From Candidatus Gottesmanbacteria bacterium (GTDB lineage: Bacteria > Patescibacteriota > Microgenomatia > UBA10105), in contig JAHFKJ010000005.1 in NCBI GenBank assembly GCA_023245415.1, forward strand, positions 7,535 to 68,825: a DNA stretch of 61,291 nt, in the 5' to 3' direction. Under the pieces are notes generated by a model. It did not search any database and was not told the origin of the DNA. It worked only from the letters and a program-made list of their open reading frames with translations. Of this stretch, positions 15,379 to 51,567 are shown in pieces. The position numbers and the translations under genes were made by a program. The stretch's first letter is position 1. The number at the start of each line of letters is the position of its first letter.

Positions 15379-15450
15379 AATGGTAATTGTATCATGAACA
15401 TGTAGATGAACATGTATAGTCTAGAAGGATTGTTAAAACAATCTAATTCT

Positions 15451-15484
15451 ATGCAAAGCTAAGCTTTGCATAGCTTTGCATAGA
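15451..15484. repeat. R2 repeat: ATGCAAAGCTAAGCTTTG plus tandem AGCTTTGCAT x2
   Basis: Palindrome TGCAAAGCT-A-AGCTTTGCA (15452-15470). The 18-nt core is identical to 17738-17755. Confidence 0.85.
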
Positions 15485-21960: not shown

Positions 21961-22029
21961 TATATATATTATATATATTTAATACATAAACCGAATTATA
22001 ATTCAAGCCATACTCCTTTAAACTGCTTT

Positions 22030-22078
22030 AGGGTTCAACCCTTTTGATCAGCAATCCTGGCTAATAGGGTTGAACCCT
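22030..22078. repeat. R1 repeat copy 2 (GGGTTCAACCC, 25 nt spacer, GGGTTGAACCC)
   Basis: 22031-22041 and 22067-22077, in the divergent region between the starts of the GH/dockerin gene and a methyltransferase gene. Confidence 0.85.
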
Positions 22079-22120
22079 ATTAATCATCATGAAGTATAAA
22101 TTTAGTATACTGTATCCTAC

Positions 22121-24057: not shown

Positions 24058-25056
24058 ATGACCAACACTCACCCCGAGTACCAATATCTAAATCTGCTCC
24101 AGGATATTTTGGACAATGGTACTTGGAAAATCAGTCATTCTACCGGCGTAAAACTCAAAAGTGTTTTTGGCCGGCAGATCCGGTTTGATTTGAATCAGGG
24201 ATTCCCGCTCTTAACCACCAAAAAAGTTTTCGTTAGAGGCATTATTCACGAGCTGATCTGGTTCTTGTCAGGCGAGTCAAATATTAAATATTTAGTAGAT
24301 AATAATGTTCATATTTGGGACGAATGGGCTTACAAAAAATATGAGTGGGCGGTCAAAGACGGTAAAGCTAAACAAATCACGTTTGAAAAATTTATGGAAA
24401 AAATAAAAAATGATAAAAAATTCTTAAAACACTGGGGTGAATTGGGACCAGTTTATGGCGTCCAATGGCGACGGTGGCCCACCTTCGCTAATGTTTCGGC
24501 GGGCAATCCCGCACCCAAAAAAACTGCCCGTGGTGAGCGAAGTCGAACCATTGATCAATTGGGCTGGGCGATTGAAAAAATCAAGAAATATCCGCAAAAA
24601 AAACATTACATCATTTCCGCGTGGAACGCCGGATGTATCTATGAAATGAGCGGTAGCCATGGGGCATCGATGGTGATCGCTCCGTGCCACACGATGTTTC
24701 ATATTAATATTTCCGGTGATAAACTGTCCCTCCTTTTATATCAAAGAAGCGCTGACATGTTTTTGGGTGTGCCGTTTAATATCGCCAGTTACGCGCTGCT
24801 AACGCTGTTACTGGCGCAGGTGACGGGATACAAGCCTGGAGAATTTATTCACACTTTCGGAGATGCCCATATTTATGAAAATCACTTTCCACAGGTCAAA
24901 GAACAGCTTGCCCGAACCCCGCGCCCATTTCCGAAAATTAATTTAAACTCTTACGTCAAAAAAATTGACGATTTCAAATTCGCAGACTTTGAAATTGTTG
25001 ACTACAATCCATACCCGCCGATCAAAGGCGAAATTACGGTAGTCGGAGGGTTTTAG
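24058..25056 (+). CDS. thyA: thymidylate synthase (ThyA) with two insertions
   Basis: GFPLLTTKK, LGPVYGVQWR, SAWN, PCH..F and YQRSADMFLGVPFNIASYALL. Confidence 0.95.
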   Translation: MTNTHPEYQYLNLLQDILDNGTWKISHSTGVKLKSVFGRQIRFDLNQGFPLLTTKKVFVRGIIHELIWFLSGESNIKYLVDNNVHIWDEWAYKKYEWAVKDGKAKQITFEKFMEKIKNDKKFLKHWGELGPVYGVQWRRWPTFANVSAGNPAPKKTARGERSRTIDQLGWAIEKIKKYPQKKHYIISAWNAGCIYEMSGSHGASMVIAPCHTMFHINISGDKLSLLLYQRSADMFLGVPFNIASYALLTLLLAQVTGYKPGEFIHTFGDAHIYENHFPQVKEQLARTPRPFPKINLNSYVKKIDDFKFADFEIVDYNPYPPIKGEITVVGGF

Positions 25057-25058
25057 AA

Positions 25059-25616
25059 ATGAAACCAACCATTTCCATCATCGCTGCAATTTCTAAGAAC
25101 CTCATCATAGGTCAAGAAAATAAACTCCTGTGGCATATACCGGAAGATCTGCGCCGGTTCAAGCAACTGACTCTCAACCACCCAGTCATCATGGGCCGCA
25201 AAACATTTGATTCAATCGGTAATCCGTTACCTAACAGAACCAATATCGTTGTTACCCACGATAAAATTTATTCAACTCGGGGTTGTATTGTAACGCATTC
25301 TTTGACGGAAGCCATCGAAATAGCCAAAAAAAAACTTGAGAAAAACATCCCGTGTCATCCTGAATTTATTTCAGGATATAAAAAGATGCTAAGTCAAGTT
25401 CAACATGACAAAATAGAGGAAATATTTATTATTGGGGGAGGACAAATATACGCCCAAGCTATACATCTTGCGGACAAATTATATTTAACTATCGTTAAAG
25501 GAGAATTTACCGGTGACACTTACTTTCCTGACTATTCGCAGTTTACCCATATAATTTCACGAGAAGATAAAGCTGATGCAAATTATCAATACGTCTTTTT
25601 GGAATTAACCCGTTAA
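25059..25616 (+). CDS. folA: dihydrofolate reductase with about 25-aa insertion
   Basis: IIAA..N..IG..N.LLW..PEDL..FK..T...VIMGRKTF.SIG.PLP.R.NIV and IIGGGQIY. It is coupled to thyA with a 2-nt gap. Confidence 0.92.
   Translation: MKPTISIIAAISKNLIIGQENKLLWHIPEDLRRFKQLTLNHPVIMGRKTFDSIGNPLPNRTNIVVTHDKIYSTRGCIVTHSLTEAIEIAKKKLEKNIPCHPEFISGYKKMLSQVQHDKIEEIFIIGGGQIYAQAIHLADKLYLTIVKGEFTGDTYFPDYSQFTHIISREDKADANYQYVFLELTR
25353..25410. repeat. P1 palindromic element (TGTCAT...ATGACA) embedded in frame in folA
   Basis: Terminal TGTCAT (25353-58) and ATGACA (25405-10). Internal perfect hairpin ATCCTGAA-tttat-TTCAGGAT (25357-25377). It encodes CHPEFISGYKKMLSQVQHD. Confidence 0.75.
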
Positions 25617-46826: not shown

Positions 46827-47769
46827 AGCGGTTTTGAAAATCCTCTTTGGAAAATTTGTGGGTTTGCGTTCCGTATTTTTCGACGGTGTAAGCAGCTGCA
46901 ACCGATCCCATTTGACCGCATGTCACAAGATCAAGACCGCGGAGAAATCCTGCTAAAAATCCGGCGCGATAGGCATCTCCCGCACCGGTCGGATCTTGAG
47001 TGTTTGCTACTTTTGCTGGCTTAATTTTTAAAAACCCCGCCTTTCCTTTTCTTAATTTATGGGGAGGCGAGGACGGATTAAATTCAATTATCGATCCTTT
47101 ATTTCCTAAAGTAGTAACTACAATCGAAGTCAAATATACGAGTTTCTCGTGATTAATCTTAAGTTTTTTCTCGATCAAAGCAATTTCGTAATCATTACCG
47201 ATTAAAATCGCACAGTTTTTGATAGCTTCTAATAATTCATGGGGTGAAAAATGGTCGATTTGAAAAGCCGGATCATACATATATGGAGTATTCAATTTAT
47301 TACATTCATCGATTTGTTTAATCATCGCACTCGGATCATTGGGAGCAATCACTACAAAATCTATTTTTTCATCTATTGATTGAAGTTTAAGAACGGAATT
47401 TTGTTTCATTGCTCCTTCATAAAACGCTCCAATTTGGTTATCTTCTGTATCAGTGACCACAAAATAAGATCCAGTTACTTCACTTGCAATAACTTTTATA
47501 TAATTCGTGGATATCTTATTGCTCGAAAGGAACTTGAGGTACGGCGAAAAATCATTTCCGGCCGCAGAAAGAATCAGAGGATTCATGCCTAATAATTTTA
47601 ATGAGTAGGCAATATTTCCGGCAGTACCGCCAAACTGTTTCTTTAAACGGTTTACCAGAAAACTTAAGGATATTTTATGGATTTTGTGGGGCATGATCCG
47701 GTCTGCAATTTTACCTGGAAAATCCATAATATAGTCATAACCCAAAGAACCGGTAATGATAATATTCAT
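46789..47769 (-). CDS. PfkB-family carbohydrate/nucleoside kinase (ribokinase/adenosine kinase-like)
   Basis: N-terminal GSLGYD and GG.AGN, and a C-terminal DPTGAGDAYRAGFL. Confidence 0.85.
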   Translation of the reverse strand: MNIIITGSLGYDYIMDFPGKIADRIMPHKIHKISLSFLVNRLKKQFGGTAGNIAYSLKLLGMNPLILSAAGNDFSPYLKFLSSNKISTNYIKVIASEVTGSYFVVTDTEDNQIGAFYEGAMKQNSVLKLQSIDEKIDFVVIAPNDPSAMIKQIDECNKLNTPYMYDPAFQIDHFSPHELLEAIKNCAILIGNDYEIALIEKKLKINHEKLVYLTSIVVTTLGNKGSIIEFNPSSPPHKLRKGKAGFLKIKPAKVANTQDPTGAGDAYRAGFLAGFLRGLDLVTCGQMGSVAAAYTVEKYGTQTHKFSKEDFQNRYEENYHQKIKIS

Positions 47770-50132: not shown

Positions 50133-50205
50133 TGTCATTGCGAGCGAAGCGAAGCAATCCAGTTACATATAAGATTGCCACGTCGCTACGCTCCTCGCAA
50201 TGACA
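50133..50205. repeat. P1 palindromic element, intergenic copy (TGTCATTGCGAG ... CTCGCAATGACA)
   Basis: Perfect 12-bp terminal inverted repeats at 50133-44 and 50194-205. The arms extend imperfectly to about 26-32 nt, and outer ACTTACGCA/TGCGTAACT flanks also pair. Confidence 0.85.
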
Positions 50206-50232
50206 AAGTGCGTAACTCATGAAAATAATAAA

Positions 50233-50302
50233 AGCGTATAGGTGTTAGCGTATAGCGTTTAGCAGTATACTTTCTTGTACTAAGCTCTAATTCCTAAACG
50301 CT
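50233..50302. repeat. R5 copy (TAGCGTATAG x2) merging into hairpin AGCGTTTAG...CTAAACGCT downstream of the YqeY-like gene
   Basis: AGCGTATAG at 50233-41 and TAGCGTATAG at 50246-55. The stem pairs 50254-62 with 50294-302. On the minus strand a T-rich run follows, so it is a possible terminator. Confidence 0.6.
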
Positions 50303-51478: not shown

Positions 51479-51567
51479 AATCAACTAATCATCTAATACT
51501 CAAATCAACCAATGTGCTTGTGGTCATTCTAAATTAGATGATTAGATAATTGAGGTATTAGATGATT
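51479..51567. repeat. R4 repeat cluster: one forward 22-mer and two inverted partial copies
   Basis: AATCAACTAATCATCTAATACT at 51479-51500, ATTAGATGATTAG at 51533-45, GTATTAGATGATT at 51555-67. The outer copies form a roughly 17-bp stem. Confidence 0.8.

Follow-up and report, generated by a model that had tools for sequence, protein, structure and literature searches.

The stretch examined here, 61,291 nt of contig JAHFKJ010000005.1 from Candidatus Gottesmanbacteria bacterium (hereafter the window, to which all coordinates refer), carries the genes for thymidylate synthase (thyA) and dihydrofolate reductase (DHFR; folA) separated by a gap of 2 nt. Inside folA, at 25353-25410, lies the 58-nt palindromic element that is the subject of this report (TGTCATCCTGAATTTATTTCAGGATATAAAAAGATGCTAAGTCAAGTTCAACATGACA). 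It sits in frame, is translated as CHPEFISGYKKMLSQVQHD in the open reading frame (ORF) context ..PCHPEFISGYKKMLSQVQHDK.., and leaves the folA frame open from one end to the other. In an alignment, the window DHFR keeps the columns that are invariant across homologues, and a database search places its closest relatives among Gottesmanbacteria, Microgenomates and other Patescibacteria (Candidate Phyla Radiation, CPR), with a maximum identity of 61% besides the window's own protein.

The element is composed of two 28-nt hairpin units, inverted and arranged head to head, with their tags pointing outward and a 2-nt spacer between them (Table 1). The 8-bp stem of the left unit is perfect (25357-25377), the arms of the right unit are damaged, and the palindrome has no continuation beyond the tags. 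A first-pass annotation of this DNA had described one palindromic element with TGTCAT/ATGACA ends, containing a perfect hairpin, ATCCTGAA-TTTAT-TTCAGGAT, and a second, degraded one, and read through in frame as part of the DHFR. The sequence bears out the ends, both hairpins and the frame within the 185-aa folA ORF; palindromy as such also stands, but not as a single palindrome with terminal hexamers, the structure being that of two units and a spacer. Folded as DNA and compared with shuffles, the 58-mer reaches z = -3.4 on the + strand and z = -3.6 on the - strand, while control 58-mers from folA (n = 2) gave z = +0.2 and -1.4. TGTCAT-N40-70-ATGACA is matched twice in the window where 0.13 matches would be expected, a count attained by 1 of 100 shuffles, and a simple scan of the window for a tag plus a perfect stem returned nothing above background except the folA unit.

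Table 1. Features of the window and GIY-YIG genes bracketed by tagged units elsewhere. L numbers denote fetched loci; the window family is the repeat family of the folA element.
Feature	Position	Strand	Basis
thyA (thymidylate synthase, 332 aa), directly 5' of folA	24058-25056	+	Pfam Thymidylat_synt, E 2.8e-102
folA (dihydrofolate reductase, 185 aa), host gene of the insert	25059-25616	+	Pfam DHFR_1, E 7.8e-54
Insertion in the protein (aa 95-118, KNIPCHPEFISGYKKMLSQVQHDK), preceded by helix 82-94 and followed by strand 121-125	25341-25412	+	Pfam, PDB alignment, AlphaFold (AF2), relatives
Left hairpin unit	25353-25380	+	39.1 bits, E 4e-7, covariance model built without window sequences
Left unit, tag TGTC	25353-25356		
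Left unit, stem ATCCTGAA	25357-25364		
Left unit, loop TTTAT	25365-25369		
Left unit, stem TTCAGGAT	25370-25377		
Left unit, tail ATA	25378-25380		
Spacer AA between units	25381-25382		direct from sequence
Right hairpin unit, inverted, decayed; minus-strand reading TGTC-ATGTTGAA-CTTGA-CTTAGCAT-CTT	25383-25410	-	15 bits, E 0.23, independent model
Right unit, damaged arms ATGCTAAG / TTCAACAT	25386-25393 / 25399-25406		
Right unit, tag GACA	25407-25410		
Head-to-head dimer of a different TGTC-tagged family, TGTC-ATTGC-GAGCGAAGCGAA-GCAAT-CCA ... inverted copy ... GACA	50133-50205		fold, sequence
GIY-YIG gene bracketed on both sides, tags outward, by window-family units	L236:1083-1446		
GIY-YIG gene bracketed on both sides, tags outward, by window-family units	L201:4678-5041		
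GIY-YIG gene bracketed on both sides, tags outward, by 50133-type units	L076		
GIY-YIG genes bracketed on both sides, tags outward, by other tagged families	L193, L071		
GIY-YIG genes with a clear 5' unit and a tag-variant 3' unit, other tagged families	L227, L002		

The hairpins belong to a dispersed family, of which we collected 81 units, 49 of them distinct. In a family unit, the tag TGTC is followed by two stem arms, ATYCTGAA and TTCAGRAT, which enclose a loop of 5 nt that is mostly CTTGT, TTTAT or CTCGT; the tail after them starts with C (CTN). The tag reads TGTC in 74 of the 81 units and CGTC in 7, the tail is CTN in 72 and CCA in 5, and a C stands right after the palindrome in at least 90%. 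The distinct units are 97.7% paired, with both-side changes in 27 cells against 5.2 in shuffles (none of 500 as high); pairs 6-24, 7-23 and 9-21 covary, and pairing is lost when the partners are slid. Stem changes among the folA relatives are likewise compensatory (ATCCTGAA/TTCAGGAT versus ATTCTGAA/TTCAGAAT). Read from the sequence, three of the six frames of a unit are open, as CHPELVSGS, VILNLFQDL and ILKQVQDD.

Measured against this family, the left window unit equals the dispersed consensus at 25 of 25 positions, unpaired tag and loop included, and 25-mers identical to it occur in unrelated contigs; its ATA tail departs from the consensus CTN in that the post-palindrome C is replaced by A. 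The right unit retains this C (tail CTT) beside a broken stem. It lies three transitions away from an attested unit, TGTCATGCTGAACTTGATTCAGCAT (L133, L183), occupies exactly the position that the geometry of a family dimer prescribes, and aligns in its 3' part with the folA inserts of L065 and L078. A score of 33.7 bits for the right unit came from a model that included the window units and was discarded as overstated, the independent model giving 15 bits. With the left unit intact and the right one decayed, the window copy is a partly decayed fossil.

Copies of the family are widespread. In 467 kb of DNA from Patescibacteria, 19 tagged hairpins with an 8-bp stem were counted, compared with 0-4 in simulations. 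A 20-position unit pattern gave at least 50 matches in 43 stretches of IMG/VR, often several per contig and on one strand, for which we estimate a chance expectation of no more than about 1; some of the carriers are bona fide tailed phages that encode terminase, portal, tape-measure and replication initiator proteins. Several family copies per contig were seen in phage contigs, and the 61-kb window holds one dimer of the folA-element family and one of another. Among metagenome contigs, a dimer pattern retrieved at least 124 dimers in at least 120 stretches. Thirteen dimers among those listed are read through in frame (ORF of at least 40 codons on each side) and encode CHPELVSGS...KQVRHD-type peptides. 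All 10 of the read-through hosts that were checked are real proteins according to Pfam: valyl-tRNA synthetase, MnmG, class I lysyl-tRNA synthetase, PheT, PriA, a C26 peptidase, a GT4 glycosyltransferase, an RsmI-like methylase, an M24 peptidase and a type III methylase. Further copies, whose absence would have refuted the first-pass annotation, thus exist in Patescibacteria folA loci, in IMG/VR and in metagenomes, and the peptide strings that it mentioned for other genomes are real, CHPELVSGS and ..KQVQDD / ..KQVRHD being open frames of the unit that recur in many ORFs.

Across the flanks of 121 dimers, direct repeats of 2-6 nt were not enriched, no target motif emerged and the palindrome ended at the tags; at the window copy, too, no direct repeats that would mark a target-site duplication are evident. 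Origin as a MITE (a miniature transposable element with inverted repeats) derived from a DDE transposon was considered and rejected, the inverted ends being present but target-site duplications lacking at both the 121 dimer flanks and the window copy. A full-text literature search for the repeat sequences met with chance primer matches only, and one for CPR repeats with nothing relevant.

On several tailed-phage contigs of IMG/VR (L104, L089, L082, L084, L087 and L114), single units, all of one strand orientation, occupy short spacers between genes. Their tag end faces the next gene, often 14-25 nt before the start codon, and the ATGACA tag end resembles a -35 hexamer. These units may have a putative role in how phage genes are expressed or DNA is processed.

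In the protein, the Pfam hit to DHFR_1 falls into two stretches, the first of which stops at aa 94. The solved DHFRs 3tq8 and 3ia4 align to aa 5-91 and 118/119-185 of the window protein, with their own residues 89 and 90 adjacent, so that some 24-27 aa are without a counterpart in solved enzymes, in agreement with the insertion of roughly 25 aa proposed in the first-pass annotation. An AlphaFold (AF2) model based on 24 homologues assigns a predicted local distance difference test score (pLDDT) of ~77-96 to the core block and of 49-52 to residues 101-120, between the flanking helix and strand; the insert would be translated as a disordered excursion of 19-27 aa. The corresponding loop of mouse DHFR is the site at which that enzyme is split in fragment-complementation assays.

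The history of this loop was followed in 80 fetched Patescibacteria folA loci, whose aligned proteins make 81 sequences with that of the window. In approximately 60 orthologues the loop is short and follows the pattern AK-x-x-D/E-xxEIFIIGGG. In a neighbour-joining tree, the window clusters with L001 (70% identity) and L003 (64%), which lack the insert and have the shortest loop of all; as the closest folA relatives, they represent the empty site. Inserts of at least 4 aa are found in the window's DHFR loop in 17 of the 81 sequences, at a second folA site in 4 and at a third in 1, and the helix-to-strand loop takes 10-37 extra residues. At this same loop, L065/L067 carry a window-family insert with an extra nested hairpin, L078 only the right half of a window-family dimer and L024 a remnant, and all these carriers fall in a clade other than the window's. 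A clean 60-nt window-family dimer occupies a different folA site in L045, L024 and L078 each have a further window-family dimer just 5' of where thyA starts, and the family also occurs in L033.

Unrelated sequences have entered the loop as well. The insert of L017 is of the GTCATTGCGAG...CTCGCAATGAC type, as is the window dimer at 50133-50205, those of L027 and L124 are of the GTCATCCTGAG...CTCAGAATGAC type, and L059, L015 and L125 carry strong hairpins of unrelated families. When 14 loop inserts from outside the window family were folded with DNA parameters, five reached z <= -2, five lay between about -1.2 and -1.4, and four showed no structure; the statement that all loop inserts are hairpins was softened accordingly. 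Equally long loops encoded by non-palindromic DNA in relatives, the other refuting condition named in the first-pass annotation, do not overturn its reading: the closest relatives have the shortest loop, and the longer loops of other relatives are encoded mostly by hairpin DNA.

Inserts at the two other folA sites (L046 ~2860-2900, L020, L035 and L034) are palindromic too, for example GTATCGATTAATCGATTAATCGATAC and, separately, a GC-rich hairpin of -25.7 kcal/mol, and in these genes nearly every indel of at least 4 aa is palindromic. Many folA loci that cluster with Patescibacteria come from MAGs bearing the titles 'uncultured Gammaproteobacteria' or 'Bdellovibrionales' (L003, L005, L007, L009, L010 and others), with similarly odd titles for L027 ('Methylomirabilota') and L008 ('Nanoarchaeia'); these records are probably mislabelled.

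Taken together, we read 25353-25410 as a dimer without a gene of its own, formed head to head by a small hairpin repeat from the CGTC/TGTC-tagged repetitive extragenic palindrome (REP) superfamily and inserted into a DHFR loop, and put the probability of this reading at roughly 80%. CGTC-tagged REPs have an unpaired CGTC tag (TGTC in many repeats) and a stem of 8-9 bp that begins with complementary AT; the loop measures 4-5 nt and the tail 3 nt (consensus CCA). They form mostly head-to-head dimers with the tags outside, include in-frame copies within ORFs and have no known transposase, their de novo formation being left open (Di Nocera, De Gregorio & Rocco 2013, BMC Genomics 14:522; PMC3733652). 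Tag, AT-started 8-bp stem, 5-nt loop and head-to-head dimer are all found in the window element. Its members include dRS3 of Neisseria as well as RPE-6 and RPE-4 of Rickettsia conorii (PMC3733652), and the superfamily takes in Neisseria dRS3/NTS, Ssn-related motifs and both Rickettsia elements. In the portion of the survey's intragenic table considered here, the encoded peptides (CHSRESGNP, VIPAKAGI, DSRFRGND) use the same frames as the window family (CH..., VI..., ...ND / ...MT), whereas the window-type peptide is absent from that portion, and neither DHFR nor ThyA stands among its decorated proteins (PMC3733652). The window family further differs in its AT-rich stem ATYCTGAA and loop CTTGT / TTTAT, in its CTN rather than CCA tail, and in its hosts, Patescibacteria and tailed phages, which the survey did not sample (PMC3733652). 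What is new is the AT-rich sequence family and the host group; the kind of selfish DNA is already known.

Rickettsia palindromic elements (RPEs) are palindromic DNA located in frame in housekeeping genes, read through and compatible with the protein fold; those of the RPE-1 type measure ~100-150 bp, and expression of the decorated protein was shown for some RPEs (Ogata et al. 2000, Science 290:347, and 2002, Genome Res 12:808, as cited in PMC10969869 and PMC3733652). The window palindrome is likewise inserted in frame in a protein-coding gene with an open frame through it, and differs in being 58 bp long, in its sequence family and in the phylum of its host, Patescibacteria. By the listed peptides only, RPE-4 and RPE-6 (SFPRKRES, VIPWLDHGI and others, in the tabulated portion) are set apart from the window's CHPEFISG / QVQHD (PMC3733652). 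The likeness to the Rickettsia elements is nevertheless closer than analogy, because the window unit fits the superfamily that holds RPE-4 and RPE-6 (PMC3733652). In-frame colonisation of the gene by a mobile palindrome of this kind, as put forward in the first-pass annotation, is supported by the distribution of the copies, which points to mobility of the element itself.

Arrival by insertion is strongly supported, because the nearest relatives have an empty site and the same family is present both in a different clade and at a different position of folA. The dimer would have entered the loop between helix 82-94 and the next strand, where it presumably survived because three of the six unit frames are open and a surface loop tolerates extra residues; the insert was probably neutral, and it now appears to be decaying, with the right stem broken and the left unit without its post-palindrome C. 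Loop tolerance is sufficient to explain the repeated occupation of the DHFR loop, and target preference or selection at this loop may contribute.

As to how the units spread, we clustered 1978 neighbouring ORFs from 163 repeat loci all against all. No recurrent transposase, RAYT-like enzymes included, was found among them; the recurrent neighbours are phage structural genes, a P-type ATPase, an epimerase, a repressor and a small GIY-YIG gene. The fetched loci contain 11 of these GIY-YIG genes, and a reading of their flanks shows that most adjoin a tagged unit and at least five have one on both sides (Table 1). Under a strict both-sides tag test, 4 of the 11 qualify against 56 of 3553 control ORFs (1.6%; Fisher p = 2e-5). 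The products are single-domain proteins of 94-102 aa, in which one glutamate aligns with E64 by manual count, and their PDB relatives are distant UPF0213 proteins only. In L002, a complete unit-gene-unit element (~2115-2490) lies exactly between the thyA stop and the folA start.

Single-domain GIY-YIG nucleases termed Ssn, of cd10448, bind the NTS/SRM hairpin CGTCATTCCCGCGMAVGCGGGAATCYRG as single-stranded DNA (ssDNA) and cut a few nt upstream; in Neisseria, the C after the palindrome is critical for SsnA binding (Chenal et al. 2025, Nat Commun 16:2388; PMC11893778). Their genes are usually hairpin-flanked, in a hairpin-gene-hairpin arrangement resembling an insertion sequence (IS), whose mobility was only hypothesised; NTS flanks particular Neisseria genes and modulates transformation, and is rarely intragenic (2% in N. 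meningitidis) (PMC11893778). The window family shares with SRM/NTS the hairpin architecture, the inverted units around small GIY-YIG genes and, in its consensus though not in the left window unit, a conserved post-palindrome C. It differs in that the window element lies inside an essential gene with no ssn-like gene in the window, and its cleavage by Ssn is only putative. Small IS-like elements, each with a single-domain, Ssn-like gene for a GIY-YIG ssDNA nuclease placed between two inverted units, may spread the units or be their ancestors, and no target-site duplication would be expected from insertion. The movement of these units by Ssn-like nucleases we infer more weakly; a candidate ssDNA substrate for the L236/L201-type GIY-YIG protein is a sequence with TGTCATCCTGAACTTGTTTCAGGATC. 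REPIN/RAYT systems and IS200/IS605-derived palindromes are comparable in having singlet hairpins and inverted doublets, no target-site duplication and one small repeat-flanked nuclease gene. The window family is distinguished from them by its (C/T)GTC rather than GTAG tag and by an associated gene of the GIY-YIG rather than HUH/Y1 transposase type; on the basis of the TGTC tag and the lack of a recurrent transposase among the neighbouring ORFs, membership in REPIN/RAYT was rejected.

Several observations weigh against reading the element as an inserted mobile repeat. Covariance models detected no other window-family copies in the 61-kb window, the right unit taken alone is not significant under the independent model, and the dimer explains only 58 of the ~72-84 extra nt and does not account for the flanking KKLEKNIP codons. 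No transposition event, excision or presence/absence polymorphism of the folA element was seen, and the databases hold no close relative of the source genome, the next DHFR being 61% identical. The 61-kb window contains no GIY-YIG or ssn-like ORF, and the activity shown for Ssn is cutting of ssDNA, not transposition (PMC11893778). The published SRM motif, HGTCWYN(0-2)YYVSBRHN(0-5)WNVSBRGN(0-2)RNCYNB, matches neither the window units nor the family consensus nor the units at 50133, although NTS is matched, as are the GC-rich units found in L022 and L193. The AT-rich family thus lies beyond the detection of that study.

The hairpins could alternatively have been kept at thyA-folA for a function, either as Ssn-type sites that limit the recombination of incoming ssDNA in the manner of NTS, or as mRNA structure tuning the translation or stability of folA. 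Such an exapted cis-element would fit the same-family dimers 5' of thyA in L078 and L024, which also carry a folA remnant, the GIY-YIG gene and hairpins exactly between thyA and folA in L002, the occupied loop in 17 of 81 orthologues and the fixed orientation of phage units 14-25 nt before start codons; NTS, moreover, flanks particular Neisseria genes and modulates transformation (PMC11893778). Yet both window units carry damage at positions important to Ssn, the left one being without its C and the right one having a broken stem. The inserts of different lineages come from unrelated families, some of them not hairpins, most orthologues, the closest included, are without any insert, and Ssn is inactive on RNA or double-stranded DNA (PMC11893778). 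We therefore regard exaptation as unlikely.

Local manufacture of the palindromes, by template switching, hairpin-primed repair or slippage in the A-rich loop-coding stretch, with a merely convergent likeness to the dispersed repeats, seems to us distinctly improbable. It would account for the palindromic nature of nearly all indels of at least 4 aa in these DHFRs whatever their sequence and for the missing target-site duplication, and de novo REP formation has been left open (PMC3733652). It is at odds with a left unit that equals the dispersed consensus at 25 of 25 positions, including a tag and loop that pairing does not constrain, with identical 25-mers in unrelated contigs, and with a dimer geometry that is that of the family. 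DHFR loops generally vary in length at this helix-strand position, and eukaryotic enzymes are longer there, which could suggest an ordinary lineage-specific loop that is palindromic by chance. A fold z of -3.4 against shuffles, 39 bits to the independent family model, the absence of the insert from the nearest relatives and the presence of the same element in other genes all argue otherwise; already contradicted by the copies elsewhere, this explanation deserves next to no credence.

A broader proposal goes beyond the inserted dimer itself. Patescibacteria and phages would carry an unrecognised AT-rich branch of Ssn-associated hairpin repeats, and palindrome insertion would be the main way in which their small housekeeping enzymes lengthen, with one DHFR loop (and one ThyA loop) struck repeatedly and independently by unrelated families; we consider this generalisation doubtful. 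In its strongest form, thyA-folA may be a preferred or selected site, and not just a tolerant one, for example if Ssn-type cleavage of incoming ssDNA controlled recombination at an often-transferred operon.

Palindromes in frame have long been seen as a rickettsial curiosity; here, the same tagged superfamily appears in an essential enzyme of one uncultivated member of the Patescibacteria, and the same family in tRNA synthetases, PriA, MnmG and other metagenome proteins. The tie between protein-coding palindromes and Ssn GIY-YIG ssDNA nucleases provides a testable candidate for the way they spread. The published SRM search motif overlooks the AT-rich family. For annotation, CHPELVSGS, KQVQHD and similar peptides in a predicted protein flag repeat DNA, not homology. 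The DHFR helix-to-strand loop, for its part, is a naturally mapped acceptor of additional residues.

The dimer at 50133-50205 is intergenic, between two minus-strand ORFs, and is a much stronger palindrome than the folA element (-21.3 kcal/mol, z = -6.7); its units have a stem of 5 bp (ATTGC), a loop of 12-18 nt and the tail CCA. The first-pass annotation had noted it as a second element with the same termini; it is indeed there and intergenic, but it shares with the folA element only the superfamily, the two belonging to separate families. Copies of the 50133 type occur in frame in the folA loop of L017 and in thyA of L046, in L037, and in L076, where they bracket the GIY-YIG gene. Adjoining the dimer, 50224-50270 contains repeated AGCGTATAG / TAGCGT words (AAAAGCGTATAGGTGTTAGCGTATAGCGTTTAGCAGTATAC) with no significant fold (z = 0.0).

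Rfam returned zero matches over the whole window at gathering thresholds, and hence no known RNA family in it. A promoter and terminator scan around folA produced only consensus-level matches, among them ATGACA-16-TATTAT (10/12), with site counts at the level of shuffles and not above.

The neighbouring ThyA also has an extra loop, of 17 aa (FANVSAGNPAPKKTARGERS), between WP.. and RTIDQL (24489-24545), which is absent in most relatives; a few have AGKPA / SADKPA-type inserts at the same point. Its DNA has inverted arms of 7 nt, CTTCGCT / AGCGAAG, with the hairpin GCGGG-CAAT-CCCGC inside them, the fold being non-significant (z = -0.8), and the loop may be an older, decayed palindromic insert. 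Other inverted repeats of the window, with 17-27-nt arms, lie at 15448-15484, 22029-22079, 47664-47740 and 51479-51567 and are unrelated in sequence to the tagged hairpins.

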